Notes under the pieces: generated by a model
What the model was told of the DNA's origin: nothing
What the model saw: the letters and a program-made list of their open reading frames with translations, nothing else
Database searches by the model: none
Program-made: the position numbers and the translations under genes
Shown here: positions 9,329-43,518 of the stretch, piece after piece
Layout: each line of letters begins with the position of its first letter
How positions within the stretch are numbered: the stretch's first letter is position 1
Assembly (NCBI GenBank): GCA_043817235.1
Contig: JBDRHA010000007.1
Location: forward strand, 9,212 to 73,211
Direction: 5' to 3'
Source of the DNA: Candidatus Shapirobacteria bacterium
GTDB taxonomy: Bacteria; Patescibacteriota; Microgenomatia; UBA12405; BS750m-G30
Length of the DNA: 64,000 nucleotides

Positions 9329-9338
9329 AAGCTAATAT

Positions 9339-22886: not shown

Positions 22887-22921
22887 CCCATTGACAACCA
22901 CCCCCCTTATTGTCAACGGGG
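22887..22921. promoter_or_regulatory. Palindrome ccccattgacaa-N11-ttgtcaacgggg in the divergent lexA / ParB-methylase intergenic region. It is a candidate operator or bidirectional -35 element.
   Basis: 11/12 bp inverted repeat. Each arm contains TTGACA. Confidence 0.3.
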
Positions 22922-22956
22922 TTCTCAAAAAATCTCATGGTAAATTCATATTAATT

Positions 22957-26284: not shown

Positions 26285-26321
26285 AGTGGACTATCTACCC
26301 AGCTACTTTGACAATATATGC

Positions 26322-26531
26322 ATGAGAAAAAATGCTAAGTTGCCAAGGGTGTTGGGCAAGAAAATCCAAAAACGCAGAAAAGAGATGGGGTTCACCCAAG
26401 AAGATGTTGCCGATAAGGCAGGTATTAGTCGCGCGTATATGGGGTACATAGAGCAAGGAAGGAATGCTCCTTCACTAGAAATCCTTGAGAAAATTGCTCG
26501 TATTTTGAAAATCTCCATCAATATTCCCTAG
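26322..26531 (+). CDS. XRE-family HTH transcriptional regulator.
   Basis: MGFTQEDVADKAGISRAYMGYIEQGRNAPSLEILEKIARIL. Confidence 0.6.
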   Translation: MRKNAKLPRVLGKKIQKRRKEMGFTQEDVADKAGISRAYMGYIEQGRNAPSLEILEKIARILKISINIP

Positions 26532-26763
26532 GGGGTACGGTCTATTAGAGCCATGCAAATCGTGCTGCGAACCGTGGACAGAGTTCGGACTTCAAATATT
26601 GGTATACAAAAGCCATTCTATGTTCCTAACTATGCCCATTTAGAATAAAAAATGCTCTAAGATTCCAATAATTCTCTCCTCATTAACGCTACCCTAACGA
26701 AAGGGTATTGTGTTCCTTTAACTTTTACTAGCTTTTTTAGTTCGTCAGAGGCATCTCTCATCC

Positions 26764-26792
26764 TTGACAAAGAAACCATACGGGAATACTAT
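26764..26792 (+). promoter_or_regulatory. Candidate sigma70 promoter TTGACA-17-TACTAT upstream of the arsR-like gene.
   Basis: Direct reading of the sequence. Confidence 0.35.
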
Positions 26793-26794
26793 AT

Positions 26795-27103
26795 ATGAAT
26801 ATGGGTTCATATAACTGTTGCCTTCCAGATAAAAAGGAGTTCAAGAAAATAGTGTCTTTATCGTCGCTTTTAAAGATTGTTGCAGAAGAAAATAGATTAA
26901 AGCTGCTTTGCATTCTTAAGAGCGAGGAACATTGCGTGTGTGAAATTCTGGAACATTTAGATATGTCTCAGAGCTTAATATCTCACCATTTAGCTGATTT
27001 AAGAAGGGTAGGATTGGTTATTGATAAGAAGCGTGGGCAGAGAGTTTATTATCGGCTGACCAAGGTAGGTAAAAAAGTTATGTCATTTTTAGGAGAACTA
27101 TGA
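26795..27103 (+). CDS. ArsR/SmtB-family metalloregulator.
   Basis: LKLLCILKSEEHCVCEILEHL...SHHLADLRRVGLV. The start may instead be the GTG at 26852. Confidence 0.7.
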   Translation: MNMGSYNCCLPDKKEFKKIVSLSSLLKIVAEENRLKLLCILKSEEHCVCEILEHLDMSQSLISHHLADLRRVGLVIDKKRGQRVYYRLTKVGKKVMSFLGEL

Positions 27104-27402
27104 GTGAAAGAGAACAAGATGTTTTAGCGAATTATCCAGCCAGTCTTGAGGAAGAGGACAGACTGTTTTTGCAGATGACTGTTCAAGATGATGATTTGGA
27201 TGAGGCTGTTAGGTTGGTTGATAAATATGGACTTGAAGTTGGAGAAGACACAACACCACTAGGTTTATGCCAAAAATGGCTACGAGATCTTAGAGGATCT
27301 GAAAAACACCATTGCCAAAACATTCTTGACTTACATAGTCAGGGTAAATCTATAGGAGGAATGCAAGCATTAGCAACATCAGTTAGAAAGGAGGCACAAT
27401 GA
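27100..27402 (+). CDS. Hypothetical protein.
   Basis: 100 aa. Acidic. Translationally coupled to its neighbours. Confidence 0.3.
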   Translation: MSEREQDVLANYPASLEEEDRLFLQMTVQDDDLDEAVRLVDKYGLEVGEDTTPLGLCQKWLRDLRGSEKHHCQNILDLHSQGKSIGGMQALATSVRKEAQ

Positions 27403-27653
27403 AAATCCAAGTTTTAGGTTCAGGTTGTCCGACCTGTAAAAAACTCTATGAAATAACCAAACAGGCAGTCGAAGAAACAGGATTAAAAGAAGAAGTTGAA
27501 TATCTTATTGGACAAGAAGGTCTTCAGAAAATGATGGATATGGGGGTTATGTCTAGCCCTGTGCTGGCAATAAATGGCAAGTCAGTAATGACTGGTTTTG
27601 TAGATGATGTAGAAAAAATTAAAAAACTTATTCTGGAGGCAAAAGAAAAGTAA
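27399..27653 (+). CDS. Small thioredoxin-fold protein (redox-active disulfide protein 2-like).
   Basis: CPTC near the N-terminus. 84 aa. This is the type that commonly accompanies ars-like permeases. Confidence 0.55.
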   Translation: MKIQVLGSGCPTCKKLYEITKQAVEETGLKEEVEYLIGQEGLQKMMDMGVMSSPVLAINGKSVMTGFVDDVEKIKKLILEAKEK

Positions 27654-27656
27654 GCT

Positions 27657-28814
27657 ATGAATCTTGTTAAAATCATCAAAAAAAACTGGGTTTTGGGTCT
27701 CTTAGGTGGCGCTTACCTAGTAATTTACCTTTGGCAAAACCAAATAGGCGGTTTTTTAGCCCAAGAATCAATACAAGCTCTTATTGGCGGGGCTATCTAT
27801 CAAGGCTGGCTAGGTTTGGTTGATTATTTATCTGCTCATGTACTATTTTGTCTGGTGCCTGCTTTTTTTATCGCTGGTGCTATTAATAGCCTCATTGACT
27901 CGCAGTCAATCTTAAAATATTTAAGTGGTAAAACTAAAAAATGGCTGGCTTACTTAATTGCTGTTACTGCTGGTTTTTTAATTGAAGTCTGCTCGTGTAC
28001 TATTTTGCCCTTGTTTGCTGGTATCTGGAAAAAAGGAGCTGGTTTAGGTATTGCCATTACTCTTCTCTATGCTGGCCCGGCATTCAATATTGTTACCATT
28101 CTTTTTACTGGTCAAAGAATCGGTTGGGAATTTAGTATTGTCAGATTTATTCTTTCAGTTGTATTTGCTATTTTGGTTGGTTTGATAATGGAGTTTGTCT
28201 TTGGCAATGGCAGAGAAGACGGAAGCCTTCAAGTGACAACTCAAGACACAAATAAGCTTAAAGGTGCTAAAAATGTCTGGTTTTGGGGAACAATGCTGGC
28301 AATATTGGTTGTTGGTACTGCTCCTATCAGTAGTAATTTAAGATACACTTTAATATTCCCTTTGGTGTTTCTTCAGTTGATAATGACTTTTTCCTGGCTG
28401 TCCAAAGAAAAAAGAGGCGCTTGGTGGGATGAAACAATTAAATTTGTCAGCCAGATTGTTCCTTTGCTTTTGGTGGGTGTGTTTTTTGCCGCTACCATCA
28501 CTCACCTTATCCCTAAAGAACAGTTTCAAGCGCTAGCCAGTCAGAATAATTTATTAACCAATTTCATTGCCGTCATGTTTGGGACTTTAGCTTATTTCCC
28601 CGCTTTAGTGGAGGTGCCTATTGCTGAAAACTTTATGAAGCTGGGAATGAACAAGGGGCCTTTAATGGCGTATATGCTGGCTGACCCGGTGCTTTCTTTG
28701 CAAGGACTATTGGTTATTAGAAAGTTAATCGGTACTAAAAAAATGTTAGTCTATGTGGTTTCAATCGTAGTCTTAACAACTCTAGCTGGTTATTTTTACG
28801 GCTTTGTAGGTTAA
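27657..28814 (+). CDS. Permease with a conserved CxC motif (DUF318/ArsP-like).
   Basis: Multi-TM. EVCSCTILPLFAG. Confidence 0.5.
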   Translation: MNLVKIIKKNWVLGLLGGAYLVIYLWQNQIGGFLAQESIQALIGGAIYQGWLGLVDYLSAHVLFCLVPAFFIAGAINSLIDSQSILKYLSGKTKKWLAYLIAVTAGFLIEVCSCTILPLFAGIWKKGAGLGIAITLLYAGPAFNIVTILFTGQRIGWEFSIVRFILSVVFAILVGLIMEFVFGNGREDGSLQVTTQDTNKLKGAKNVWFWGTMLAILVVGTAPISSNLRYTLIFPLVFLQLIMTFSWLSKEKRGAWWDETIKFVSQIVPLLLVGVFFAATITHLIPKEQFQALASQNNLLTNFIAVMFGTLAYFPALVEVPIAENFMKLGMNKGPLMAYMLADPVLSLQGLLVIRKLIGTKKMLVYVVSIVVLTTLAGYFYGFVG

Positions 28815-29339
28815 ATGAATATGAATAAAAAGACCATTATTTCTATTGGCGCAATCTTATTAACAATCATTTTGCTTTTTAGTTTCAAAAACTCATCTAA
28901 TAAAGAAGTTAAAAGTTCTTCTGCGTTAAGCCAAACTTCACCTGTTTCAATCGAGTCTCAAGAAGAAAATAATTCCTCTTTAGTGAGTCAACAAGCACTA
29001 CCTGCTGACAAAATTGAAGTTATTCATTTCCATGGCACTCATCAATGCTGGTCTTGTATTACTGTTGGTGAGTATGCCCTCCAAACGATTAAAGATAAAT
29101 TCCCAGAAGAATATCAATCAGGAAAAATAGTCTTCAAGGACATAAATGGTGAGTTGCCAGAAAACAAAGAGATTGTCATCAAATATCAAGCTCGTGGTTC
29201 CTCATTGTTTATTAATGCCATTAGAGGTGAAAAAGACAATATTTCAGAGGATACAACTGTTTGGCGATTGATTAGTGATGAGGATGGATTTGTTACTTAT
29301 CTAGAGAAAAAGATTAATAAGTTACTGGGAGATGTTTAG
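28815..29339 (+). CDS. Membrane-anchored CxxC protein, hypothetical.
   Basis: An N-terminal TM anchor. HGTHQCWSC. Confidence 0.3.
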   Translation: MNMNKKTIISIGAILLTIILLFSFKNSSNKEVKSSSALSQTSPVSIESQEENNSSLVSQQALPADKIEVIHFHGTHQCWSCITVGEYALQTIKDKFPEEYQSGKIVFKDINGELPENKEIVIKYQARGSSLFINAIRGEKDNISEDTTVWRLISDEDGFVTYLEKKINKLLGDV

Positions 29340-29657
29340 ATGAACAATAATAAGACCAAGAGTTGGAATGGAATTCCTCGGGAAAAGATCAACTGGCATC
29401 CAACTATTGATAAAACAAAATGTATCCAGTGTTTATCCTGTGTGGCCTTTTGTAAACAAGGCGTATATACCGAAGAGGATGGTCAACCCAAAGTTGTTAA
29501 TCCACTTAATTGTGTGGTGGGTTGTACTGGTTGTCAGAAAACTTGTCCAGTAAAGGCAATAAGCCATCCATTCAAAGAATATTTACTTAAATTGACAGGG
29601 CAGTCAAATATTGAGGCTGGTTGTAGTTCTGCAACAAAATCTTGCTGTACAAAATAA
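29340..29657 (+). CDS. 4Fe-4S dicluster ferredoxin-like protein.
   Basis: CIQCLSCVAFC and CVVGCTGCQKTCP. Confidence 0.55.
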   Translation: MNNNKTKSWNGIPREKINWHPTIDKTKCIQCLSCVAFCKQGVYTEEDGQPKVVNPLNCVVGCTGCQKTCPVKAISHPFKEYLLKLTGQSNIEAGCSSATKSCCTK

Positions 29658-29658
29658 T

Positions 29659-30381
29659 ATGAACGCTATAAACCAAATAATAGATGCTTATAACATACCA
29701 ATCCTGACAGCTTTTTTGGTAGGTATTCTCACCTCAATTAGTCCTTGTCCGTTAGCGACTAATATTACTGCCATTGCCTTTATTTCCAAGGACATTAAAA
29801 CCCCTAAACATACTCTCCTGAATGGTCTGTTTTATACCCTTGGTCGGGGCATCAGCTACACGGTATTATCAGCCCTCATATACCTGGGGTTATCTTCCTT
29901 TCAGATCTCCAGAATCTTTCAGGGATGGGGTGACAAGGTACTGGGACCAATCCTCATCCTGATTGGTCTGGTTATGCTTGACGTCATTAAACTGAACTTC
30001 AAAACACAGAGTGAGCAGGTGGAAAAACTGAAAGTGTGGTTATCAACCAAGGGCTATTTGGGAGCCTTACTGCTAGGCATGCTATTTGCTCTAGCCTTTT
30101 GTCCTTACAGCGGAGTGTTGTTCTTTGGAGTCCTAATCCCGCTTATTATGAAATCAACCGAGGGTGTGCTTTTGGCTCCTCTATTTGCTTTAGGGACGGG
30201 GCTACCGGTCATTGTCTTCTCCTTTATCATTGCTTTCAGTATGCAGAAAATGAGTCAAGCGTTTGCGATTGTTTCAAAAGTGGAGAAAGCCACTCGCATT
30301 GTAGTGGCAAGTACTTTTATCTTAGTCGGACTCTATTACACCCAATACTTGATAAAATATTTAATAGATACCGTTTTATGA
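29659..30381 (+). CDS. ccdA: CcdA/DsbD-family transmembrane thiol-disulfide transporter.
   Basis: SPCPL in TM1 and a second Cys in CPYSG. Six TM helices. Confidence 0.6.
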   Translation: MNAINQIIDAYNIPILTAFLVGILTSISPCPLATNITAIAFISKDIKTPKHTLLNGLFYTLGRGISYTVLSALIYLGLSSFQISRIFQGWGDKVLGPILILIGLVMLDVIKLNFKTQSEQVEKLKVWLSTKGYLGALLLGMLFALAFCPYSGVLFFGVLIPLIMKSTEGVLLAPLFALGTGLPVIVFSFIIAFSMQKMSQAFAIVSKVEKATRIVVASTFILVGLYYTQYLIKYLIDTVL

Positions 30382-30854
30382 AACAAACAGCAATTACCGG
30401 CATAATTATTATCGTTATCGTAGGACTACTATCTATTATTGTCTGGGGAAGCAGGAGTAATCAAGCAGTTTCAACTGAACCAACACAAAACGAACAGGCG
30501 TCTGTCAGTGAATCTCCAATTACTGTTGCCTCTGATGCACTCATTTTCTTTTACGGTAACACATGCCCGCATTGTGAAGACGTCGAGGAGTGGATGACTG
30601 AAAACAAAATTGAGGAAAAGATTCAGATTGTGAAGAAAGAAGTCTACGATAATCACGCCAATTCCTTGGAATTGACTCAGGCAGCTAAAAGCTGCAGCCT
30701 ACCGACTGACAGCATTGGCGTGCCATTTTTGTACACACCAGAGGGAGAATGTTCGATCGGGACTCCGGATATCACAGCCTATTTAATAAGCCAAGTCAAG
30801 GCATTAGAGCAAAGTTCTGATACCAATGAATCAGGAGAAAGGAGTCAGGAATGA
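30378..30854 (+). CDS. Membrane-anchored thioredoxin/glutaredoxin-like oxidoreductase.
   Basis: An N-terminal TM helix. CPHC active site (YGNTCPHCEDV). Confidence 0.5.
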   Translation: MKQTAITGIIIIVIVGLLSIIVWGSRSNQAVSTEPTQNEQASVSESPITVASDALIFFYGNTCPHCEDVEEWMTENKIEEKIQIVKKEVYDNHANSLELTQAAKSCSLPTDSIGVPFLYTPEGECSIGTPDITAYLISQVKALEQSSDTNESGERSQE

Positions 30855-31351
30855 GTATCTTTATGGCCTTGTTGTTTTTATTGGTCTTAGCTTTTCCCAC
30901 ACCAGCCCATGCCGTCTGTCCAGTTTGTACGGTGGCGGTAGCAGGAGGATTGGGTATCTCCCGGTGGTTGGGTATTGATGATGCCGTGACCGGAGTTTGG
31001 ATTGGTGGGTTGATTCTGTCCAGCGGCTTATGGTTGGCTGACTGGATAGGTAAGAAAGGTTGGAGAGTGCCGTTTAAAGAGTTGATATCCATAATCCTTT
31101 TTTACCTGTTTGTGATTCCACCCTTGTACTGGGCAAAGATGATTGGTTTGCCTGGTAACAACCTTTGGGGGGTCGATAAAATTGTTCTGGGTACAATAAT
31201 TGGCTCAATTCTATTTATGTGTGGAGTATGGTTGGACAAATGGTTTAGAACTACCAATGAAGGGAAGGTCTACGTCTATTACCAGAAAGTCATTGCTCCA
31301 ATGTTTTTACTGACACTTGGGAGCTTTGTCTTGTATTTAATTACCAATTAA
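30851..31351 (+). CDS. Membrane protein, hypothetical (CPVC motif after the signal sequence).
   Basis: Hydrophobic. 166 aa. Confidence 0.3.
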   Translation: MSIFMALLFLLVLAFPTPAHAVCPVCTVAVAGGLGISRWLGIDDAVTGVWIGGLILSSGLWLADWIGKKGWRVPFKELISIILFYLFVIPPLYWAKMIGLPGNNLWGVDKIVLGTIIGSILFMCGVWLDKWFRTTNEGKVYVYYQKVIAPMFLLTLGSFVLYLITN

Positions 31352-31356
31352 AGGAG

Positions 31357-31926
31357 GTGAAAACTATGAAAAACAACAAACCAGTTCAGCCTGATATCAA
31401 CGAATTTATGGACAAGGTTAAAAAGATGGAGAAGGGCGAAAAACTTGACCTTTCATCTGATGAAGACTTGTCAGTCGCCATCATGAATCTAATTTCGTTG
31501 GAGGAGCATTTCTTTTTCACCTATAACAAAACTGGTGATGCCAAATATCTTGACCTTCTGAACGAGATTCGTGAGATGCGGAAAAGCTCTCTCAAACGAA
31601 TTATCAAGGACTACGAAGGTGAAGTTTGGTGCATCAGCAAACATCTGCTGGCAGCTTCGATGCGATTTATGGAAGTCGGAACCAAGGCCTTAACCAAGGG
31701 TGATAAAGGCGATGCTGAGGATATGTTCCAAAAGTCCTATCAGCTGTATAGCTTGTTCTGGGGGTTAAACCTGGGTTTGGTTAAAACCGATGACGTTAAA
31801 CAAACCAATTCTCAAGAAGTTGCTTTTGTTAGCGATGATCCCAAACCAAAGCAAATAGGCTCAACCAGTCTCTTTGCCAAACTCGGGGAGGTAGTAAAGA
31901 AAGCGATTGATTGCTGCAAAGAATAA
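31357..31926 (+). CDS. Hypothetical protein.
   Basis: An ORF with an upstream AGGAGG RBS (aaaggaggtgaaaact ATG). Confidence 0.35.
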   Translation: MKTMKNNKPVQPDINEFMDKVKKMEKGEKLDLSSDEDLSVAIMNLISLEEHFFFTYNKTGDAKYLDLLNEIREMRKSSLKRIIKDYEGEVWCISKHLLAASMRFMEVGTKALTKGDKGDAEDMFQKSYQLYSLFWGLNLGLVKTDDVKQTNSQEVAFVSDDPKPKQIGSTSLFAKLGEVVKKAIDCCKE

Positions 31927-32330
31927 GTTTTTGATATTTCTACATACTTTCAGGGATATTAAGCATGATTTTCGCAACAGGCATAAGAAGCGAATGCTTA
32001 ACGGTTTACCTGTGATTTTCACTCAAATTATAACTTTTAGTCATCTAGCTAAGTGGCAGTACTACGCCTAAGAGAGTACGGTCATAAAGAACCTTGCGAA
32101 TCGTGCTAGGGCAAAGTTTTAAAGCTAGACTTCCGAAAACCCTTGCGGTACCTTGACCGCAGTGAAAAGAGAAAAAACCAAGAATCCATACATTCTGCTT
32201 CTCAAAAGGTGCGAAAACTATTTTTACAAATACCTCCTAACCCACGACAAAATCTACATTGATCGCTTTTTTTCCACCAGTAAACGACTAAAGAACAAGC
32301 TAAGGAGAGAATAATATGATGGTTTATTGT

Positions 32331-32384
32331 GCTAACTGTTGCTTAGCAAGTAGGTTGATAATATAATCGTGTTACGCTAACCCA
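32331..32384. promoter_or_regulatory. Two more copies of the GCTAAC-N5-GTTAGC dyad (one of them perfect) upstream of 32417.
   Basis: gctaactgttgcttagc and gctaacccacagttagc. Confidence 0.4.
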
Positions 32385-32416
32385 CAGTTAGCATGGTTAA
32401 GTAATAAACAAACACG

Positions 32417-33007
32417 ATGAAAGCCAAACTAGGCGCGATTAATGTAAAACGCAAAAGCGGAGCTGAACTCTTTCTTCAAGATAATGGAAATTTAAACTTT
32501 TCATTACTTGATTATTGGCAATGGGCCAATTCTGATTTAATCAATAACACCACCAGAGGGATATTGGCAGAATTCATCGTAGCCAGCGCCCTTGGAATAA
32601 CTAAAGGAGTCAGAAAAGAGTGGGATTCCTTTGACTTAAAATACAAAAATCTCAAGATCGAAATAAAATCCTCGGCATACATCCAAAGTTGGCATCAATC
32701 AAAATACTCAAACCTAACATTTGGAATACAACCCACTCTTGCTTGGAACCCAGATACAAACAAATATAGCCAGGTAACCACAAGACAGTCAGACATCTAT
32801 GTTTTTTGTGTGCTAAGCAGTAAAAACAAAAGAACAGTAAATCCACTAAATCTTGACCAATGGGACTTTTATATAATCCAGACAAAAGTGCTAAATGACA
32901 AAAAAAGGAATCAGAAAGCGATTTCCCTTTCCAGCCTGGTGAGATTAAATCCCAATAAAGCCAAATTCAATGATATTAAAAAGAACATAGATGTATTAAC
33001 AAAATGA
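32417..33007 (+). CDS. Hypothetical protein, possibly PD-(D/E)XK nuclease-like.
   Basis: D...EIK pattern (FDLKYKNLKIEIKSS). Otherwise unrecognised. Confidence 0.3.
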   Translation: MKAKLGAINVKRKSGAELFLQDNGNLNFSLLDYWQWANSDLINNTTRGILAEFIVASALGITKGVRKEWDSFDLKYKNLKIEIKSSAYIQSWHQSKYSNLTFGIQPTLAWNPDTNKYSQVTTRQSDIYVFCVLSSKNKRTVNPLNLDQWDFYIIQTKVLNDKKRNQKAISLSSLVRLNPNKAKFNDIKKNIDVLTK

Positions 33008-33063
33008 TAATACTCGACTGTAGGGTGTAATCATGTTCGTCGTCACAACGGTTTACTTTTAAA

Positions 33064-33092
33064 TTGAAATTTCTTCACGATTTTTGTATGAT
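33064..33092 (+). promoter_or_regulatory. Candidate sigma70 promoter TTGAAA-17-TATGAT upstream of the HTH/RM genes.
   Basis: Direct reading of the sequence. Confidence 0.35.
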
Positions 33093-33103
33093 ATTGATAT
33101 AAA

Positions 33104-33286
33104 ATGGTAAGTAAGTTTATGGAAGAACTGCTAACTCTTAAAGAAACAGCTCAAATCCTCAAAGTCCACCCAAACACACTAAGACTGTGGGACAATAATG
33201 GCGTGCTTAAAGCAGTGCGGATTGGAGTGAAAAAGATAAGAAAATACAGAAAAAAAGATATTGAAAACTTTATAAACAAAAAATAG
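33104..33286 (+). CDS. Excisionase/MerR-like HTH DNA-binding protein.
   Basis: LLTLKETAQILKVHPNTLRLWDNNGVLKAVRIG. Confidence 0.5.
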   Translation: MVSKFMEELLTLKETAQILKVHPNTLRLWDNNGVLKAVRIGVKKIRKYRKKDIENFINKK

Positions 33287-33288
33287 TC

Positions 33289-34878
33289 ATGACAAAAACT
33301 GATAAAAAATTACACGAAAAGCTATGGGCATCTGCTCAACAACTTAGAGCAAATAGCAGTCTCAAACTTAACGAAATATCAGAACCTATTCTTGGGCTTA
33401 TTTTTTTGAAATTTGCAGATGTTCGATTTCAAAAAGCAAAAAAAGATGTTGAAGCTGAGCGATCTAATGTATTACGAGATTCAGGCTCTTCAAGAGTCAG
33501 ACCTTTAGCTCCCGAAGACTTCAAAGCAAAGGGCATCCTGTATGTTCCCGAGGCATCTGGATACAAGTACTTAATGTCTCTTCCAGAAAATGAAAATATT
33601 GGAAAGGCTATAAACAAGGCCATGGAAGAAATTGAAGAAGCAAACAAAGACCTAGCTGGTGTGCTTCCACAAAATTACACATCACTTGTTAAAAATGCCA
33701 ATAAAAATAATAAGCTACTTTTAACGCTACTTAAAAGTTTTAATCAAATACCTGACGATATAAAAGGAGATGCTTTTGGTGGGATTTACGAATTTTTCTT
33801 AGGACAATTTGCCCTAGCAGAAGGTAGAAATGGAGGAGAATTTTTTACTGCACAACCAATTGTAAAATTACTGGTTGAAGTGATAGAGCCCTATAAAGGT
33901 AGGATTTACGATCCAGCGTGTGGTAGTGGTGGAATGTTTGTGCAATCTGCAAATTTTGTGCAACGACACAAAGATTACAACTCTCAAGTAATGGATAAAA
34001 TAACCATTTATGGTCAGGAAAAAACATCCAGCACAGTCAACATTGCCAAAATGAATCTAGCCATCCATGGGCTCTCTGGAAAGATTGTGCAAGCTAACTC
34101 TTATTACGAGAATCCATTTAACAGCACTGGTAGATTTGATTTTGTGCTGGCTAATCCTCCTTTTAATGTTAGTGGAGTTGATAAAAATAAACAAATCGTT
34201 ATTGATCCCAAAAAGATCGAGGGAGATAGGCGTTTTGAGCTAGGATTACCCCTAACTCAAAAAGGTGATGTTACTAATGCCAATTACCTTTGGGCTCAAG
34301 TATTTGCTAATTCTTTAAATAGCAAAGGTCGAGCTGGTTTTATTATGGCTAACTCAGCCAGCGATGCTAATTATGCTGAAAAAGACATCAGAATAAAGTT
34401 AATCGAAGAGGATCTGGTAGACGTAATGATTGCTGTAGGGTCAAACATGTTTTTGAATGTCACACTTTCCTGCACTCTCTGGTTTTTTGATAAAGATAAA
34501 AAGAATTCCAGTAGAAAAGGAAAAACCTTATTTATAAATGCCCAAGACATTTACACCCCAATCGATCGGGCACATAATACTTGGACTGAAGAACAAATTA
34601 AGGGAATCGCTGACATAGTTAAAAGATATCGAGGAGAAACGGGCTTCGGTAAATATGAGGACATTAAGGGTAGGTGCAAGGTGGCTAGCCTTGAAGAAAT
34701 CAAAGCAAATAATTATTCTCTCAACTCCGGAAGGTATGTAGAAATAAAGGAAAAAGATGTAGATAATGTGGATTTTGAAACTCGGATGAAAGAGTTGATG
34801 AGCGAGTTTACTATCCTAACTCAAAAAGCGCATAAATTGGAAGATAAAATCTCTAAAGACTGGAAAAAAATATTATGA
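33289..34878 (+). CDS. hsdM: Type I restriction-modification system, methyltransferase subunit.
   Basis: GEFFTAQ is motif X. DPACGSGG is motif I. LANPPFN is motif IV. Confidence 0.9.
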   Translation: MTKTDKKLHEKLWASAQQLRANSSLKLNEISEPILGLIFLKFADVRFQKAKKDVEAERSNVLRDSGSSRVRPLAPEDFKAKGILYVPEASGYKYLMSLPENENIGKAINKAMEEIEEANKDLAGVLPQNYTSLVKNANKNNKLLLTLLKSFNQIPDDIKGDAFGGIYEFFLGQFALAEGRNGGEFFTAQPIVKLLVEVIEPYKGRIYDPACGSGGMFVQSANFVQRHKDYNSQVMDKITIYGQEKTSSTVNIAKMNLAIHGLSGKIVQANSYYENPFNSTGRFDFVLANPPFNVSGVDKNKQIVIDPKKIEGDRRFELGLPLTQKGDVTNANYLWAQVFANSLNSKGRAGFIMANSASDANYAEKDIRIKLIEEDLVDVMIAVGSNMFLNVTLSCTLWFFDKDKKNSSRKGKTLFINAQDIYTPIDRAHNTWTEEQIKGIADIVKRYRGETGFGKYEDIKGRCKVASLEEIKANNYSLNSGRYVEIKEKDVDNVDFETRMKELMSEFTILTQKAHKLEDKISKDWKKIL

Positions 34879-36107: not shown

Positions 36108-37186
36108 ATAAAAGCACATACTTTGACTTAACGAATCAAGATATTGAAAATCTCAGAATTGAGAGAGTTGACAACTTTGATTGTGAGCTGAAAGACGATA
36201 GTCAAATTTACGATGGATTTATTATTGCAAAAAGCCCAACTGGAAGTGTTCTGACAGTCTGTGATTCTAGTTTTCATAAATCAGACACTGATGATAAATA
36301 TCAACCACGCTTAATATTTAGAAAATCTAATGAAAATTTTGAAAACAAAACTACTAGATCTGACGCAACACATATTAGAATTCCTTTTCTCACAGGTCAA
36401 GACGGCTATCGAGAATTCTGGAAGATGATTTCATTCTTATACAGGTTTAAAGACCTAATTGATGTAGGTCATTTTGAAGACAGCTTTCAAGTAGTGGTCA
36501 CAGATCAAAACAGTGCTCATTATATTTCTGAACTTTTAGAGAAAGGTTACTCCAAAGGTGTATGGCAAGCTTTAGTTGAAGTAGATCCGGATTTAGCCAC
36601 TAAGCTTTCTTTGTCTAGAATTTATGAATCTAGAAAATCAGTAATAGAAGAAATGAAAACTAAAATTAGCCAAGATGAAAATGAAGAATACTGGCAAAAG
36701 TTACTAGCAAAAAATAGGTGGATTTTTGGAAATAGCTATATAGGAATTATAGGCGAGAGAAGAACTAACATATCCTCAACACTAGACCATCCTCTCATTA
36801 CTGAAGATGGTTATCTTGAAATAGTTGAAATCAAAAAACCAAGTTTCTCATTCTGGAAGCTAAAAACAAACGGAGAACAATATTTATATAGAGATAAATA
36901 CTTAGTTCCTCACCAAGAATTGCAAAATGCGATAACACAAGGTTCGAATTATATATTTGAAACTGAGAAGGAAATGGACAGAAAATCATGGGCAGAAAGC
37001 CATGATGGAATATATCCACTAAAACCAAAGTGTTTAATTATTCATGGCAGATCAAACGACTGGGGGGATAACGAGTCTCAATCTTACAGATTACTAAATG
37101 ACAGGCTTCATGGAGTATCAATAATCACTTTTGACCATTTGATTTTAAGGGCAAAACAAACTTTAGAACTATTTAAACCAGAATAA
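36104..37186 (+). CDS. Shedu/DUF4263-like protein with a C-terminal PD-(D/E)XK nuclease domain, embedded between hsdS and hsdR.
   Basis: C-terminal HPLITEDGYLEIVEIKKP is a D...E-x-K motif. The N-terminal domain is unrelated to RM subunits. Both junctions overlap the neighbouring genes. Confidence 0.45.
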   Translation: MNKSTYFDLTNQDIENLRIERVDNFDCELKDDSQIYDGFIIAKSPTGSVLTVCDSSFHKSDTDDKYQPRLIFRKSNENFENKTTRSDATHIRIPFLTGQDGYREFWKMISFLYRFKDLIDVGHFEDSFQVVVTDQNSAHYISELLEKGYSKGVWQALVEVDPDLATKLSLSRIYESRKSVIEEMKTKISQDENEEYWQKLLAKNRWIFGNSYIGIIGERRTNISSTLDHPLITEDGYLEIVEIKKPSFSFWKLKTNGEQYLYRDKYLVPHQELQNAITQGSNYIFETEKEMDRKSWAESHDGIYPLKPKCLIIHGRSNDWGDNESQSYRLLNDRLHGVSIITFDHLILRAKQTLELFKPE

Positions 37187-37190
37187 TAAT

Positions 37191-40100
37191 ATGAATAAAT
37201 TTACAGAAGACAACTTAGTTGAAAAAACAGTAATAAGTTTGATTGAGGAGTTGTGGAAAAATCCTAATTGTCATATCAACGCCTTTACTGATAAGGAAGA
37301 TAAAAAACTTGGCAGGGAAAATCGTGGCGAGGTTCTACTCCCCTCTTCTCTGCGATCTTCATTAGAAAAACTCAATCCCAACATCCCACCAGAAACTATT
37401 GAAGAAGCAATAGCTGAGATATCACGAGATCGCTCAACTCTTTCTTTGATTAAGGCTAATCAAGAAATTTACAGTGTTCTTAAAGACGGTTTAAACATTA
37501 ATGTTAAACAGTCTGATGATAGTTTTAAAACCGAAACTATCAAATTCTTAGATTTTGAAAACCCAGAAAATAATCACTTTCAAATAGTATCTCAAATGTG
37601 GATTGTGGGAGATATTTATACAAAACGACCTGATGTAATTCTATTTGTGAATGGCATTCCATTAATTTTATTTGAGCTTAAGGCTTCTCACAAAAATCTG
37701 TCAAACGCTCTTAGGCAAAATATCCACCCATACATAGAGACAATACCCAAGCTTTTTTGGTACAACATGGGCATTGTCTTATCTAATGGTATCGAAAACA
37801 AAATAGGCTCATTTACTTCCCATTATGAGTTCTATAATGATTGGAAAAAGGTTGAGAGTGAAGATGACAAATCTAAAACAGATCTACGTACACTTGTTTT
37901 TGGAGTTTGCAATAAAACAAGACTTTTAGATATTTTTGAAAATTATTGTTTGTTTGATGAGTCAAAAGGAGAGATTAAAAAAATAGTTCCTCGGTACTTT
38001 CAGTATTACGGTGTTACCAAAGCATTTGAGAATGTAAAAAATAGGATTGATCTTGATGGTAGACTAGGAGTTTTTTGGCATACTCAAGGATCCGGGAAAT
38101 CTTATTCGATGGTTTGGTTGTCCCAAAAAGTTTTGAGAAAACTTCAAGGCAACTTTACTTTTGTTGTTGTGACCGACAGAACTCAATTAGATGGACAAGC
38201 TTATGGAAACTTTGCCAATGTAGGGGCTGTATATGAAAAAGAGGTAAGAGCTACCAGTATTCACAATCTACACGAACTCTTGCAGGAAGATCATCGACAA
38301 ATATTTACCACTATTCAAAAATTTCAACACATTAAAGGTAGTATCTCTGATCGTAATGACATCATTGTCATGACAGATGAGGCGCATCGTTCCCAATACG
38401 ATCACTTTGCTTTAAATATGAGAAAGGCTCTACCGAACGCTTCGTTTATTGGTTTTACAGGCACTCCCCTTATGGCTAAGGGTGAAGAAAAAACTAGAGA
38501 GGCTTTTGGAGATTATGTTTCTGTTTATAATTTTGGTCAGTCTATTGAAGATAAGGCTACTGTGCCATTGTTTTATGAAAACAGAGTACCTTTCTTAAAA
38601 AATGTTAACGAAAACCTAGATAAAGATCTAGAAAAGGTTATTGAATTTTATGACCTAAATGAAGATGCAGAAGATAAACTTGAAAAGGAATTTTCAACCT
38701 TTTATCACATAGTAACTAGAGAAGATCGTCTTAACGCCATCGCTCGTGATATTGTTCAACATTTTGTTAGCCGAGGGTATGACGGAAAAGCTATGGTTGT
38801 AAGTGTAGATAAAAAAACTGCTATTAGAATGCATGCCAAAGTTCAGAATGAATGGAAACGATATTTAGGCAAGTTGAGATTGGAGTTGGGGAAAACAACC
38901 GACGAACTAGAAAAAACAAAAATTCTTGAAAAGCTGGAAAAACACGAAGATGTTGATATGGCTGTAGTTGTAAGCCAAAGTCAAAGTGAAATCGAAGATA
39001 TGGCAGAGTTTGAAATTGACATGAAGCCAATTCGAGCAAGAATAAAAAATGAAAATCTTGAAAAAAAATTCAAAAAAGCAGAGAGCAACTTGAGAATTGT
39101 GTTTGTTTGTGCCATGTGGATGACGGGCTTTGATGTTCCCAATCTCTCAACGCTATATCTTGATAGACCATTGAAAAATCATACACTTATGCAAACTATT
39201 GCCAGAGCAAATAGGGTTTACCCAGACAAAAAAAATGGTGTAATCGTTGATTACATTGGTGTTTTCAAGAATTTGGAAAAAGCTTTAGCTTTGTATGCAT
39301 CAACTGGAGTAAGTGATGACGAAGTTGTCAGAGATAAAAAAGAGTTATTAGAAGAACTCAAAGAAGTGGTTAAACTTACAGAGACTATAACAGTTGAAAG
39401 GGGCATTAATATTAGGACACTTCTAGAAGTAGATGGAGAAGAAAAACTCAAGCTTCTCAATAATTATACAGATGTTGTTTTAGCCGATGAAAAATATAAG
39501 AGAAAACTATTAACCATAGCTAGTGAGTTGAATAGTACCTACAAATCAGTTTTGCCCAACCCAGACGCAGAACAATACTATAATTTTGTAACTGCTGTAA
39601 AAGTTTTATCCTCAAGAGTTAGAGATATTGGTTCCCACAGTGTAGACGTATCTCAGGTTAAGCGAGATTTAGAAGAACTTCTCGACCGATCAATTCAAAC
39701 TGGGGAGTACGTGATCCCTCAACATAAAAAGATAAAAGACCTAAGTCAGTTAGACGCAAATGCCTTAAGAGATTATTTTAAGGAGCTAGAAAACAAAAAC
39801 ATTCAGGTCGAAGAGATGAAGGCAGAGCTCAAAGATAAAATTGAGGAAATGATTAGAAGAAACAAGAAAAGGACTCAATTCATGGATCGTCTTAATTCTT
39901 TGCTGAATGAGTACAATAGTGGTGCCCACGATATAGATAAACTATTTGACGATTTAGTAAAATTAGCAAAAGACCTCACGAATGAAGAGCAGCGCTCTAT
40001 AAAAGAAAATCTATCTGAGGATGAACTAGCAATTTTTGATTTACTATTGAAAGAAAAATTGGAGAATAAAGAAATTGATCAAGTTAGGAAAACAGCTAGA

Positions 40101-40328
40101 ACTTTACTAAAAAAACTTCAGGAGGAGAAACTGGTACTTGATTGGAGAGAAAAAGAATCTACACGGGCAGGTGTTAAAAATACTATTTTCGATATAGTTT
40201 ACAATTCTCTTCCAGAGCCAACATATACAGAACAGGAATGTGAGGCAAAAGGATCAGAGGTCTATAATTTCGTATTTGAGAGATATGGAACTTTTAATCA
40301 CCAACAAGCTCAGATCTATGCGCAATAA
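37191..40328 (+). CDS. hsdR: Type I restriction enzyme R subunit.
   Basis: N-terminal PD-(D/E)XK. Helicase motifs QGSGKS, DEAHRSQ and GFTGTPL. Confidence 0.9.
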   Translation: MNKFTEDNLVEKTVISLIEELWKNPNCHINAFTDKEDKKLGRENRGEVLLPSSLRSSLEKLNPNIPPETIEEAIAEISRDRSTLSLIKANQEIYSVLKDGLNINVKQSDDSFKTETIKFLDFENPENNHFQIVSQMWIVGDIYTKRPDVILFVNGIPLILFELKASHKNLSNALRQNIHPYIETIPKLFWYNMGIVLSNGIENKIGSFTSHYEFYNDWKKVESEDDKSKTDLRTLVFGVCNKTRLLDIFENYCLFDESKGEIKKIVPRYFQYYGVTKAFENVKNRIDLDGRLGVFWHTQGSGKSYSMVWLSQKVLRKLQGNFTFVVVTDRTQLDGQAYGNFANVGAVYEKEVRATSIHNLHELLQEDHRQIFTTIQKFQHIKGSISDRNDIIVMTDEAHRSQYDHFALNMRKALPNASFIGFTGTPLMAKGEEKTREAFGDYVSVYNFGQSIEDKATVPLFYENRVPFLKNVNENLDKDLEKVIEFYDLNEDAEDKLEKEFSTFYHIVTREDRLNAIARDIVQHFVSRGYDGKAMVVSVDKKTAIRMHAKVQNEWKRYLGKLRLELGKTTDELEKTKILEKLEKHEDVDMAVVVSQSQSEIEDMAEFEIDMKPIRARIKNENLEKKFKKAESNLRIVFVCAMWMTGFDVPNLSTLYLDRPLKNHTLMQTIARANRVYPDKKNGVIVDYIGVFKNLEKALALYASTGVSDDEVVRDKKELLEELKEVVKLTETITVERGINIRTLLEVDGEEKLKLLNNYTDVVLADEKYKRKLLTIASELNSTYKSVLPNPDAEQYYNFVTAVKVLSSRVRDIGSHSVDVSQVKRDLEELLDRSIQTGEYVIPQHKKIKDLSQLDANALRDYFKELENKNIQVEEMKAELKDKIEEMIRRNKKRTQFMDRLNSLLNEYNSGAHDIDKLFDDLVKLAKDLTNEEQRSIKENLSEDELAIFDLLLKEKLENKEIDQVRKTARTLLKKLQEEKLVLDWREKESTRAGVKNTIFDIVYNSLPEPTYTEQECEAKGSEVYNFVFERYGTFNHQQAQIYAQ

Positions 40329-40346
40329 TTACGAGCAAAATCTAGC

Positions 40347-41852
40347 ATGACTCTCTCCAAATCCGACTACATGCTATTTCTCCGCCACCCTGCTTGGTTG
40401 TGGCTGAAGAAATTTGAAAAACACAAACTACCCCCAACTGATGATAATTTGCAAGCCATATTTGATGCCGGACATGAATTTGAAGAATACGCTGAAAAGC
40501 TATTTCCTGATGGAGTAAAACTCGGGTTTAATAATTTTGACGAATATCGTTCATTGCCCGACAAAACGAAAAAAGCTCTGGACGACTGTGCTTCTACTAT
40601 TTTTCAAGGACGCTTTGAAGAGAATGGTTTAACTTGTATTGTGGATGTGCTTGAGTGTGTTGAGGGGAATACTTTTGATTTGATCGAAATTAAAAGTAGC
40701 ACAAGAGCAAAACCAGAACATAATTATGACTTAGCTTTTCAAGCAATCGTCTTAGAAAAATCAGGACTTAAAATCCGAAATATCTTCGTAATTCACGCAA
40801 ACAAGGAATATTCCCGAAATGGTGACATTGAATCTGAGAAACTCACGATAAAGACTGATGTGACCGAGAATGTAAAAGCCTTGATTGATTTAACAAAAAA
40901 GCAGATTAAAAAAGCATTTAAGGTATTAGCTGTAAAAGAAATGCCGGATATTTCTCCACGCCTTGTTAATCAAGCTGGAGTTACTGGAGTGCAATGGTTT
41001 GCAGAATGGCTAGAAGTATACAAGAGTTTGAAATCCAATCTTGATCCCTACAGTATATATTTCTTGAGTTTCCCGAATGCAGATCAAATTGGCCAACTAG
41101 AGGATGTAGGAATTAAACAGTTAGCAGATGTTCCCGAAAAGTTAGCATTGCGTCCCAAACAAGTGACACAAATCCAAACCACCAGAGACAACAAAAGAAT
41201 TATTGATAAAGAGAAAATAAGAGAGTTTTTAAGCACTTTTAAGTTCCCGCTGTATTTTCTCGATTACGAGACATTTTCTTCTGTGATACCTGCTTTTGAT
41301 GGCTGTCAACCCTACAAAGACTACCCATTTCAGTATTCACTCCATGTTTTGGATACTCCCGAATCTGAGATACGCCACGTTGAATACCTACACCAGGAGA
41401 ATTCAAATCCCATACCAGGGCTAATTAAAAAACTAAAGGTAGATATTGGTAAAAAGGGTACAATTCTCACTTGGAATATGAGCTACGAGAAAGGATGTAA
41501 TGATAGAATGGCAGGACTTTATCCTAAATACAAAGAATTTTTAGACTGCCTGAACGAGCATATCCATGACTTGATGATTCCATTTTCAGAAATGTGGTTT
41601 GTGGACAAAGATTTCTTTGGCAGCGCTTCAATAAAAAATGTCATGCCAGTACTTGCTCCTGAACTTAGTTATAAAGAATTGGGTATTTCAGATGGTCTAT
41701 TTGCCAGAAGGATGTGGACACAGACAGTTTTAGAGGGCAAGAATCAAAGCGAGCGGAAAAGAATCATGGCGGATTTGAGCAAATACTGTACTTTGGACAC
41801 TTTTGCAATGGTAAGAATATTAGAAGAATTGCAAAAAATCATAAAAACTTAG
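40347..41852 (+). CDS. DUF2779-like protein: an N-terminal PD-(D/E)XK nuclease-like domain plus a C-terminal RNase H-like (DEDD-type) domain.
   Basis: The N-terminus LSKSDYMLFLRHPAWLWL is the DUF2779-type start. IDVLE...LIEIKSS. YFLDYETFS is an exonuclease motif I-like. Confidence 0.45.
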   Translation: MTLSKSDYMLFLRHPAWLWLKKFEKHKLPPTDDNLQAIFDAGHEFEEYAEKLFPDGVKLGFNNFDEYRSLPDKTKKALDDCASTIFQGRFEENGLTCIVDVLECVEGNTFDLIEIKSSTRAKPEHNYDLAFQAIVLEKSGLKIRNIFVIHANKEYSRNGDIESEKLTIKTDVTENVKALIDLTKKQIKKAFKVLAVKEMPDISPRLVNQAGVTGVQWFAEWLEVYKSLKSNLDPYSIYFLSFPNADQIGQLEDVGIKQLADVPEKLALRPKQVTQIQTTRDNKRIIDKEKIREFLSTFKFPLYFLDYETFSSVIPAFDGCQPYKDYPFQYSLHVLDTPESEIRHVEYLHQENSNPIPGLIKKLKVDIGKKGTILTWNMSYEKGCNDRMAGLYPKYKEFLDCLNEHIHDLMIPFSEMWFVDKDFFGSASIKNVMPVLAPELSYKELGISDGLFARRMWTQTVLEGKNQSERKRIMADLSKYCTLDTFAMVRILEELQKIIKT

Positions 41853-41915
41853 TCCTGTTTTAGCCTAGCAATGAGACTCTTCTAAGCCTGGACTTCTTAA
41901 CCCCTTCCCGGTACC

Positions 41916-43268
41916 TTGTACCCTGAAATGGGAACATACAACCAAAATCAACAAAAAGAGCTTCCAAAAATCAAATACTGTCTTTATGCCCGCAAATCTT
42001 CCGAATCAGATGAGCGCCAAGCCATGTCAATTGGTTCTCAGATTGAAGAAATGAAAACACTGGCAAAACGAGATAATCTCAAAATTAAGGAGATAAAGCA
42101 AGAAAGCCACTCGGCCAAGAATTCTGGCTCCAGACCCGTCTTTACCCAACTACTCCAAGAGATAAGACAAAAGAAGTTTAACGGCATACTTACCTGGGCT
42201 CCGGATAGATTAAGTAGAAATGCAGGTGACTTAGGATCGGTAGTAGATCTAATGGATCAAGGAAAACTTATAAAAATCCAAACATACTCGCAAAGTTTCA
42301 GCAATAGTCCAAATGAAAAATTCTTACTAATGATTCTCTGTTCTCAGGCAAAGCTAGAGAACGATAACAAGGGCGTAAACGTTCAAAGAGGACTCAGGAC
42401 TAAGTGTGCCATGGGCTGGCGTCCTAGCATCGCTCCACTAGGCTACTTAAACCAAAAAGGTGATGGTCACGTCGATGAATTGATTATTCTTGACTTGGAA
42501 CGATCATCTTTTGTCACTCAAATGTTCAAAAGAGTTGCTAATCAAGGCCATAGCGGAAGAGCATTAAAAAACTGGCTAGATAGAATTGGATTTGAAACTA
42601 GAAATGGAAATAAAATCCCATTGAGTAAAGTATATTCAACTCTCAAGAATCCATTCTATTACGGTGAGTTTGAATTCCCCGTGGGCAGTGGCACATGGTA
42701 CAAGGGCAAACACAAACCACTCATTACAAAAGAAATCTTCGATAAAGTTCAAGCTATTCTTCAGACTGTTCCCAAGGGATATAAAAATAAAGTCTTTCCA
42801 TTTAAGAAAATCTTCAAATGTGGAAGTTGTGGTGGAAATGTAACAGCTGAAGAAAAGTACAGGAAACTAAAACATGGTGGTTGTACAAAACACATTTACT
42901 ACCACTGTGGCAGATCTATCGATTATCAATGCGATGAGCCATACATTACTGAAGCTAACTTAATTAAACAACTCATAGCCAATATCGATAAAATGAAGTT
43001 CAACTACGCTGGAATAACCAGAAAAATCCAGCAAGACATTGAAAGATATCACAAACTAAAAACACAGGTACTTCATCAGGAATTTATTGACGGTAATTTA
43101 ACTGAATTCAACAATGTTCCCAAAACTGTTGCTGACAAAAATAAAATGACCAAAAACTACGTACTCCACATTCTCAAAGTAGGCACAGCAGAAGAAAGAC
43201 AAGAAGCTCTGTCGTTTATCAAAACAAAGTTCATTCTGTCAAAAAGAACGATAATAATACAGAAATAA
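41916..43268 (+). CDS. Large serine recombinase (integrase-type).
   Basis: The YARKSSESDERQAMSIGSQ catalytic region. A recombinase domain. A C-terminal Cys cluster CGSCGG...HCG. Confidence 0.8.
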   Translation: MYPEMGTYNQNQQKELPKIKYCLYARKSSESDERQAMSIGSQIEEMKTLAKRDNLKIKEIKQESHSAKNSGSRPVFTQLLQEIRQKKFNGILTWAPDRLSRNAGDLGSVVDLMDQGKLIKIQTYSQSFSNSPNEKFLLMILCSQAKLENDNKGVNVQRGLRTKCAMGWRPSIAPLGYLNQKGDGHVDELIILDLERSSFVTQMFKRVANQGHSGRALKNWLDRIGFETRNGNKIPLSKVYSTLKNPFYYGEFEFPVGSGTWYKGKHKPLITKEIFDKVQAILQTVPKGYKNKVFPFKKIFKCGSCGGNVTAEEKYRKLKHGGCTKHIYYHCGRSIDYQCDEPYITEANLIKQLIANIDKMKFNYAGITRKIQQDIERYHKLKTQVLHQEFIDGNLTEFNNVPKTVADKNKMTKNYVLHILKVGTAEERQEALSFIKTKFILSKRTIIIQK

Positions 43269-43445
43269 CAGCGTCATTTAGGAGTGGCGTACTTCTCGTG
43301 GTTTAAAAAGTAAGTTTTTACTGAAACTTAAACCATACATTACAGGATCTAAAACGACACTTCGAGCAAACTGAAGAAAAATTAGCAAGCAACATCGGGC
43401 TTTTTGGCGCAGGCGTACGGGTCGCCCTGAACCTGGCGATACTTG

Positions 43446-43518
43446 TGACCCCACGGGGAATCGAACCCCGGTTTCCAGGATGAGAACCTGGTGTCCTAGG
43501 CCGCTAGACGATGGGGCC
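43446..43518 (-). tRNA. tRNA-Glu (anticodon CTC).
   Basis: Manual fold. GGCCCCA acceptor. D-arm GTCTAGCGGCCTAGGAC. Anticodon stem CCAGG/CCTGG with loop TTCTCAT. T-arm GGTTCGATTCC. CCA is not encoded. Confidence 0.75.

Follow-up and report, generated by a model that had tools for sequence, protein, structure and literature searches.

Look-alike segments around the cargo of a tRNA-targeting serine-integrase island in Candidatus Shapirobacteria are best read as gene-start control regions and paralogous junctions rather than attachment sites

Introduction

Large serine recombinases (LSRs) of the phiC31/Bxb1 type use dissimilar attP/attB pairs, and integrons consist of a tyrosine IntI, an attI site, and cassettes each followed by an attC site, which folds as an imperfect hairpin. 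The 3' ends of tRNA genes are said, in the Islander paper, to be the usual target of tyrosine integrases. The tycheposons of Prochlorococcus are tRNA-adjacent cargo islands that grow by repeated integration, with partial tRNA repeats marking their arrays and with tyrosine recombinases as the enzymes mostly used (bioRxiv 10.1101/2020.12.28.424599). Here, we describe a stretch of 64,000 nucleotides (nt), hereafter the window, from a Candidatus Shapirobacteria bacterium (GenBank assembly GCA_043817235.1, contig JBDRHA010000007.1, positions 9,212 to 73,211), in which three look-alike segments, designated A, B, and C, lie around two accessory modules beside the gene of an LSR (hereafter the integrase) and a tRNA-Glu gene.

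The best explanation for the region from ~16-22 kb to 43.44 kb of the window is that it constitutes one integrative element of a family widespread in the candidate phyla radiation (CPR)/Patescibacteria. The backbone of the family has the order (repressor) - ParB-methylase - small terminase subunit (TerS) - large terminase subunit (TerL) - XRE regulator - (ORF1) - integrase - arm - tRNA. We hold, with moderate confidence, that the locus is one element of this CPR family, in which a conserved motif serves as a 5' control region, the two modules are cargo of a variable slot, and segment A and the left half of B are paralogous junctions bracketing a redox operon.

The element resembles the LSR prophages and islands of the phiC31, Bxb1, TP901-1, and A118 types in that an enzyme with Resolvase, Recombinase, and Zn-ribbon domains is encoded at one element end, a conserved element-side arm extends up to the host junction, and no long direct repeat of the target is found at the far end. 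It differs from them in that the targets are tRNA 3' ends, in a clade-specific manner (Glu/Lys, Ser, and Gln), and in that its repeats appear not to be att sites. As in the tycheposons, the integrase gene lies beside a tRNA gene and the cargo is variable, with defense or metabolic genes, here with a degraded second recombinase further in (14630-16018); in contrast to the tycheposons, there is no partial tRNA copy, and the repeats would be motifs at gene starts within a single element. Phage-inducible chromosomal islands and other phage satellites share with it the compact integrated form, an integrase, repressor-type regulators, terminase genes, and no recognized virion structural genes, whereas the present element has both TerS and TerL, a ParB-methylase, a CPR host, and a serine integrase. 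The gene content fits a phage satellite, to which the element may be likened by analogy only. The accumulation of accessory genes directly upstream of the recombinase gene, with short repeats between units, recalls an integron. However, there is no tyrosine IntI, the recombinase is a serine recombinase co-oriented with the cargo, the repeat precedes genes at a fixed distance from the start codon, and most cargo blocks have no second copy; the folds of A, B, and C, on both strands, were no better than those of shuffled sequences, with no attC-like fold. The locus is a typical, if little-described, tRNA-targeting serine-integrase CPR island with a cargo hotspot. A literature search found no paper describing this element family, which is weak evidence of novelty.

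Results

A conserved motif precedes the integrase gene and two small open reading frames

Eighty genome loci with integrase relatives were collected, and a motif was found to recur directly upstream of the integrase start in these loci. The motif, CTAGACTT-N12-13-GCGGTACCTT, is separated by 6-12 nt from the start codon that follows it, which is that of the integrase gene or of one of two small open reading frames (ORFs), ORF1 and ORF2. In the locus set L001-L173, which comprises the genome loci and metagenome loci derived from XRE homologs, the motif was present in 60 loci of CPR bacteria, with or without cargo. After removal of duplicates, 45 copies were located before integrase genes, 11 before ORF1, and 10 before ORF2. 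Start codons followed the second box at a median of 8-10 nt, and an ORF started within 0-29 nt in 66 of the 70 distinct copies. The motif also heads 199-nt small-ORF units, and arrays of the form motif-ORF1-motif-ORF2-integrase occur.

A hidden Markov model (HMM) of the motif, built from the other loci only, matched segment B at 32124-32158 (E 1.9e-8) and segment C at 41885-41923 (E 2.9e-6); it gave no other match in the 64-kb window, and segment A was not detected. The spacer of B is most like the ORF1 motifs of other elements, for example that of L027, and C is near-identical to the integrase motifs of L001 and L005-L008, almost identical in the case of L001, L007, and L008. Since B groups with the ORF1 motifs of other elements and C with their integrase motifs, the right half of B and C would be old paralogs belonging to two backbone genes, ORF1 and the integrase, and not the product of a recent insertion duplication. 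ORF1 itself had tblastn matches in seven genome loci, and the motif stood before each of the 11 homologs aligned; no Pfam or PHROG family was matched. The motif consensus showed no dyad symmetry, and no inverted repeat was reported there by a repeat finder. The best reading of the right half of B and of C is as the 5' control region (promoter and/or leader) of ORF1 and the integrase, and not as att sites, as judged from position and conservation in the sequences.

Segment B is a composite of two pairwise similarities

Segments A, B, and C were all present near the coordinates given in the first-pass annotation, which had treated them as three related copies of one repeat. Formal alignment bore out the relatedness only in pairs and over different halves (Table 1). 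A (26527-26566) and B (32067-32107) aligned with ~76% identity and a local score of 33, above all 300 shuffles (17.3 +/- 2.3, maximum 29). B (32117-32186) and C (41880-41949) aligned with a score of 34 (shuffles, 17.3 +/- 2.3, maximum 27), and this alignment extends into the first codons of ORF1 and the integrase. A and C, conversely, scored 16, which is no better than shuffles (17.6 +/- 2.5). The block tgc(g/a)aatcgtgct is confined to A and B, and the block ccctt(g/c)cggtaccttg ... tgaaa to B and C, GACTTC being the sole block common to all three; the three-way alignment had a mean column identity of 64%, with few invariant columns. B is a composite, whose left half is common with A and whose right half is common with C. 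A single three-copy repeat family was rejected, because A and C are not similar.

Segment C lies directly before the integrase gene, as the first-pass annotation had noticed, but the gene starts at the ATG at 41928 and not at the TTG at 41916.

The left half of segment B and segment A resemble XRE-motif junctions

In 16 close XRE homologs representing the empty state, the XRE stop codon is followed after 10-22 nt by the motif and then by the integrase (13) or ORF1 (3). In both A and B, the distance from the stop codon (TAG 26529-26531 and TAA 32069-32071, respectively) to GACTTC is 56 nt, whereas GACTTC follows the stop codon by 13-25 nt in relatives. A score of at least 33 was reached in 6 of 5936 random 200-nt pairs from the window (~1e-3), some of which are true repeats. 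By score alone, the A/B match is moderately strong; the identical stop-to-GACTTC spacing makes homology much likelier than the score alone indicates, so that homology would be the better reading.

These comparisons suggest that A and the left half of B are paralogous junctions, each consisting of an XRE stop codon, a 56-nt spacer, and a first box, which bracket the redox operon. A is best seen as a truncated copy of the junction between XRE and the ORF1 promoter, which would have kept the spacer and the first box and not the second; its second box is absent or decayed, with GGTATAC after a spacer ~6 nt shorter. Such a pair most likely reflects either an exchange between two sister elements that had diverged or an insertion, long ago, with duplication, and not a serine-recombinase att site. 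An HMM of the left half matched A and B only. The left half gave 0 pattern matches in JGI metagenomes and was absent upstream of other ORF1 genes.

An origin of A and the left half of B as integrase-arm remnants, that is, a tandem-element junction, was also considered and was rejected: only an 11-mer is shared, and the nhmmer match (E 7.6) is at chance level. Separately, a single contig, CAZIZX010000003.1, carries two elements of the family (L032 and L037), each at its own tRNA-Ser gene. Sister elements that share a genome in this way could swap cargo through homologous recombination.

The modules occupy a variable cargo slot

The first-pass annotation had proposed that the segments bound two accessory modules, one redox/ars-like and one of type I restriction-modification (RM), and Pfam gene content confirmed the nature of both. 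HsdM, HsdS, and HsdR occur together in the second module, with a Shedu protein nested between hsdS and hsdR, and neither module has a recombinase of its own. The modules are accessory, as had been supposed: close relatives without them have XRE, motif, and integrase contiguous, and XRE-motif-ORF1 is contiguous in L004. Because of these contiguous relatives, the redox operon and the RM/Shedu module are taken to be true insertions into a cargo hotspot, the former between XRE and the ORF1 motif, and the latter between ORF1 and the integrase motif. The XRE homologs are 86% identical in L004 and 71-84% identical in metagenome loci, with the motif directly after them.

The same slot holds other genes in relatives. 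L004 has metabolic genes between ORF1 and the integrase motif, L001 has a different type I RM system plus an AAA_21 protein, and 6-9 kb of cargo is accompanied by only one motif copy in at least seven relatives. The redox operon of the window has its own canonical promoter, TTGACA-17-TACTAT, at 26764-26792. The same operon, which is common in CPR bacteria, has housekeeping genes for neighbors in L084 and a recombinase remnant close by in L082. In L036 (3420-11333) and L025 (5180-8533), it was observed between the integrase stop codon and the arm/tRNA, which is a second cargo position in the element family. The flanks of the redox operon in L036, L025, and L082-L090 had no sequence in common.

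The probable host junction is the 3' end of a tRNA gene

The integrase (446 aa) matched PF00239, PF07508, and PF13408, all above cutoff, and the N-terminal YARKSSESDERQ serine motif is visible in its translation. It is 100% identical to a protein of a Candidatus Shapirobacteria metagenome-assembled genome. More than 8000 relatives were obtained from one search, thousands of them in CPR bacteria above 60% identity.

A tRNA-Glu gene beyond the integrase, noted in the first pass, was confirmed by ARAGORN as tRNA-Glu(CTC), and UvrC and then UvrA follow it. The arm downstream of the integrase has 74-85% nucleotide identity in L001-L008 (nhmmer E 5.5e-31); across relatives it is 110-177 nt long and adjoins the 3' end of an opposite-strand tRNA. 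Where a tRNA gene was present downstream (52 loci), the nearest one was always encoded on the opposite strand (52 of 52), at a distance of 300 nt or less in 18 loci and of 1 kb or less in 32. The tRNA type followed the integrase clade, with Glu (Lys in L006) at identities of at least 69%, Ser at 57-62%, and Gln at 46-52%; the integrase end thus adjoins a tRNA gene whose type is conserved with the integrase lineage, as in tRNA-targeting islands. This conserved adjacency suggests that the recombinase would target tRNA 3' ends for insertion, in the window that of tRNA-Glu(CTC), and that this tRNA 3' end, on the downstream side of the integrase gene, is probably its host junction.

The window was searched for a further copy of the tRNA end or the arm that could mark attL, and none was found, nor was a partial tRNA copy. 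The lack of a direct repeat of the tRNA end is as expected, since the integrase is of the serine and not of the tyrosine type. In L091, whose UvrC is 74% identical, UvrC and tRNA-Glu are present with no integrase beside them. In a search of IMG/VR for excised or circular forms, a 15-mer of the arm gave chance matches only, and a 20-base pattern gave none. Four viral contigs with integrase relatives of 49-65% identity had no tRNA and no terminal repeat.

Two further arrangements of tRNA genes were observed. In L006 (11392-11581 and 21203-21277), the arm adjoins tRNA-Lys(TTT), and tRNA-Glu(TTC) is 10 kb away on the other strand, which suggests target switching between neighboring tRNAs, or an inversion. 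Beside UvrC in L091 (1160-1500), there are a tRNA-like 5' piece, GGCCCCATCGTCC, and a matching 3' piece, ~300 nt apart; the ~300-nt interval contains a complete tRNA-Glu(CTC), and repeated AGGACAGGTCGAC...GGTTCAA blocks are present as well. This could be an odd split or intron-like arrangement.

Table 1. Features of the proposed element and its cargo (window coordinates)
Feature	Coordinates	Strand	Description
LexA/CI-like repressor	22132-22755	-	LexA_DNA_bind + Peptidase_S24 (Pfam); PHROG CI-like; divergent from backbone operon
ParB-N nuclease-like domain fused to N6/N4 DNA methylase	22891-24282	+	Pfam, PHROG; backbone gene 1
Small-terminase-like HTH protein	24279-24686	+	PHROG terminase small subunit; 38 matches in related loci; backbone gene 2
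Terminase large subunit-like protein	24661-26208	+	phrog_38, E 7.7e-80; 29 matches in related loci; backbone gene 3
XRE-family HTH regulator	26286-26531	+	Pfam HTH_3; backbone gene 4
Segment A	26527-26593	+	XRE stop codon, 40-nt left half 26527-26566, 20-nt spacer, GGACTTC 26587-26593 (first box only)
Cargo module 1, ArsR-regulated redox/permease operon	26764-31926	+	ArsR, Thioredoxin_3, ArsP_1 permease, Fer4, DsbD_2, unknowns (Pfam)
Segment B	32067-32161	+	Left half 32067-32107 and full motif: CTAGACTT 32125-32132, GCGGTACCTT 32145-32154
ORF1	32162-32314	+	~50-aa conserved protein KRCE.YFYKYLLT.DK.YIDRFF.TSKR; GTG start 7 nt after second box
Cargo module 2 (defense)	32417-41852	+	Pfam; begins with unknown 196-aa protein
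HTH_17	33104-33286	+	
HsdM	33289-34878	+	N6_Mtase + HsdM_N
HsdS	34875-36107	+	Methylase_S x2
Shedu SduA_C protein	36104-37186	+	Nested in type I RM operon between hsdS and hsdR
HsdR	37191-40328	+	HSDR_N + SWI2_SNF2 + T1RH-like_C
DUF2779/Cas4-like nuclease	40347-41852	+	Pfam
Segment C	41880-41927	+	Full motif before integrase: CTGGACTT 41888-41895, CCGGTACCTT 41908-41917, 10 nt, then ATG
Large serine recombinase (integrase)	41928-43268	+	Resolvase + Recombinase + Zn_ribbon_recom; phrog_95
Integrase-downstream arm	43269-43444	+	176 nt, ends exactly at tRNA 3' end; putative element-side half (attR-type)
tRNA-Glu(CTC), putative integration target	43445-43518	-	ARAGORN, Rfam

Backbone genes and the remainder of the window

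Many loci have homologs of the ParB-methylase, TerS, TerL, and XRE in this order ahead of the integrase gene, backbone gene 1 having 48 matches across the 80 genome loci, and compact forms with ParB-methylase, TerS, TerL, motif, and integrase exist, for example in L048 and L045. The probable true start of backbone gene 1 is the ATG near 22957. A viral contig, L295, has the same arrangement of repressor and backbone. No capsid, portal, or tail genes were recognized among the proteins scanned in or beside the backbone, a scan that did not take in every unknown ORF.

Left of the backbone, at 8141-22130, genes of defense type are densely clustered, with DUF2130, DUF3800, a SMODS (CBASS-like) nucleotidyltransferase, a type ISP restriction enzyme, and an OLD-family AAA_15+TOPRIM protein. 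Housekeeping genes (class I W/Y tRNA synthetase, HAD) extend to about 6.1 kb. A second LSR ORF at 14630-16018 (+) is 27% identical to the main integrase with ~55 catalytic-domain residues gapped out, and it probably derives from a decayed older element. A GC-rich repeat family of 80-140 nt occurs at 925-1075, 2327-2480, 3079-3217, 14430-14568, and 15881-15972; three direct copies are 94-96% identical, and inverted copies flank or overlap the second recombinase ORF. This family may be a MITE-like element. On the far side of the tRNA, the segment 53260-54900 has a GC content of 51-52%, versus ~38% for the genome, and only overlapping ORFs on both strands; it adjoins a DUF11 gene (55041-55673) and matched no Pfam and no Rfam family.

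Discussion

Position and conservation suggest that the motif probably acts as the own promoter of the genes that it precedes, copy B serving ORF1 and copy C the integrase. It lies just upstream of each gene in the same orientation and shows a 16-17 nt spacing and a T-A-...-T pattern; its two boxes would act as -35/-10 elements, and leaderless or near-leaderless mRNAs would result. The canonical ArsR promoter in the same genome ends 2 nt before its ATG, which makes a leaderless layout plausible in this genome. In read-through transcripts from upstream, the 3' part of the motif could base-pair with the initial codons, which would mask the start codon. Transcripts begun at the motif would lack the 5' arm and be translated, whereas cargo read-through transcripts would fold.

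Start-codon hairpins, formed by the GCGGTACCTT end and the first codons, were observed at the window copies (32145-32180 and 41908-41945) and at ~30 related loci. They have 5-8 bp, the last bases of the second box being paired with the first codons, and their arm sequences vary with the gene family (integrase, ORF1, or ORF2). In L020, L029, and L038, the second box pairs with the Shine-Dalgarno sequence and sequesters it. In the per-copy count, such a hairpin was lacking in about half of the copies, among them that of ORF1 in the window and most of those in the tRNA-Ser clade. RNAalifold found no common register or consensus structure for these hairpins, and an Rfam gathering scan yielded tRNA only, with no Rfam family for the segments.

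Several observations weigh against our interpretation of the locus. A consensus sigma-70 scanner does not flag the motif, TAGACT/TACCTT having 7/12 matches, which is below threshold. A start-codon hairpin arises from the second-box end in ~47% of the distinct copies, compared to 12-14% in controls; with the second-box end as a hairpin arm, this part would be transcribed in some RNAs, and the motif could be a leader. The 40-nt left half common to A and B was found in no other locus, either by blastn in the 80 genome loci or by the HMM in the 173 loci. The gaps at 26532-26794 and 31927-32161 contain no significant integrase, XRE, or other backbone remnants, and since no remnants lie beside the redox operon, the route through two sister elements is without direct support. 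The two motif copies in the window and in L004 bracket ORF1 and cargo, as insertion at the motif would also predict. Finally, the element boundaries are less firmly placed on the left. The empty XRE-motif-integrase/ORF1 order was found in loci lacking the modules, the comparison that the first-pass annotation had called for, but the far flank of L091 is not syntenic with the window, the left border is not fixed, and L093 ends at the tRNA; the sequence upstream of the ParB-methylase is not conserved across 18 loci, and the left end of the element was not located there.

In another explanation, the motif is an RNA-level leader only. Its GCGGUACCUU box would pair with the start region and thereby regulate translation of all three genes (integrase, ORF1, and ORF2), and the promoter would lie further upstream, for example at TATAGT in the XRE-motif spacer, or be replaced by read-through from the cargo, which is co-oriented with the integrase. 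The hairpins are indeed enriched (mean z -1.4, compared to -0.14 and -0.32 in controls; p 0.003 and 0.0005), their arms vary by gene family and in three loci take up the Shine-Dalgarno sequence, and the sigma-70 match is poor, as described above. A leader alone, however, accounts neither for the first box, CTAGACTT, nor for the constant distance of 16-17 nt between the boxes; about half of the copies fold no such hairpin, no common register and no Rfam family emerged, and the motif is kept whatever is upstream, which fits a self-contained promoter. We therefore regard the leader-only explanation as rather unlikely. The likeness of A and B could instead be a coincidence, with only the B/C motif real and the redox operon having no flanking repeat. 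The same 22 kb does contain many pairs of 28-34 nt at 71-76% identity according to the repeat finder, random window segments reach the A/B score at the rate given above, and the left half occurs nowhere else. Yet the pair was predicted beforehand by the canonical adjacency of XRE and motif, both members begin at a stop codon with GACTTC exactly 56 nt on, and the score exceeds that of every shuffle, so that chance is an improbable explanation.

Two other explanations ascribe the segments to recombination at the motif. The first-pass annotation had interpreted A, B, and C as the attL, hybrid, and attR sites that consecutive serine-integrase integrations of the two modules, redox and RM, would leave. 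In favor of this mechanism, the segments bound both modules, C adjoins the integrase, and one motif copy is found in module-free relatives as opposed to two around ORF1 and cargo in the window and L004. However, att sites are expected at the element/host boundary, and the motif sits at gene starts inside a conserved gene order in dozens of chromosomal loci, while the integrase has its conserved junction beyond the opposite end of its gene, at the tRNA. Hybrid LSR sites should share little beyond a central dinucleotide, whereas B and C are alike over 45-70 nt, on both sides of any crossover, and A and C are not similar at all beyond shuffle level. The motif has no inverted-repeat half-sites and also heads the 199-nt small-ORF units, at least seven loci have cargo with a single copy, and the modules have no recombinase of their own. 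This mechanism is already largely refuted and, in our judgment, exceedingly improbable. Alternatively, the motif could be a capture site, at which the recombinase or an ORF1/ORF2 partner inserts promoter-led cassettes upstream of the integrase in an integron-like manner; ORF1, ORF2, the RM block, and the redox operon would be successive cassettes, and A, B, and C scars, the older ones decaying. The motif-ORF1-motif-ORF2-integrase arrays with 199-nt units, the paired copies in the window and L004, the resemblance of A to a decayed copy, and the nucleotide similarity of the first codons after B and C are all consistent with capture. Against it, many cargo blocks have no left copy, the motifs before ORF1 and before the integrase group across elements as old paralogs, no attC-like structure is folded, and LSRs use dissimilar attP/attB, this one already having a tRNA target; capture at the motif is thus very unlikely.

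Under the preferred reading, in which the motif is a 5' control region within one CPR-family element, cargo-bracketing repeats beside an integrase need not be att sites; here, they would be paralogous control regions at the starts of backbone genes. The analysis also outlines a very abundant CPR family, which combines a tRNA-targeting LSR with a ParB-methylase/TerS/TerL module, and whose cargo slot carries either defense systems (type I RM, Shedu, and a Cas4-like nuclease) or metabolic operons. The genomes of CPR bacteria are tiny, and few routes of gene exchange are known for these bacteria; a well-defined gene vehicle would therefore be useful. A defined vehicle for defense and redox genes, with a predictable tRNA target and a recognizable motif, would aid the annotation of CPR genomes and the mining of serine integrases.

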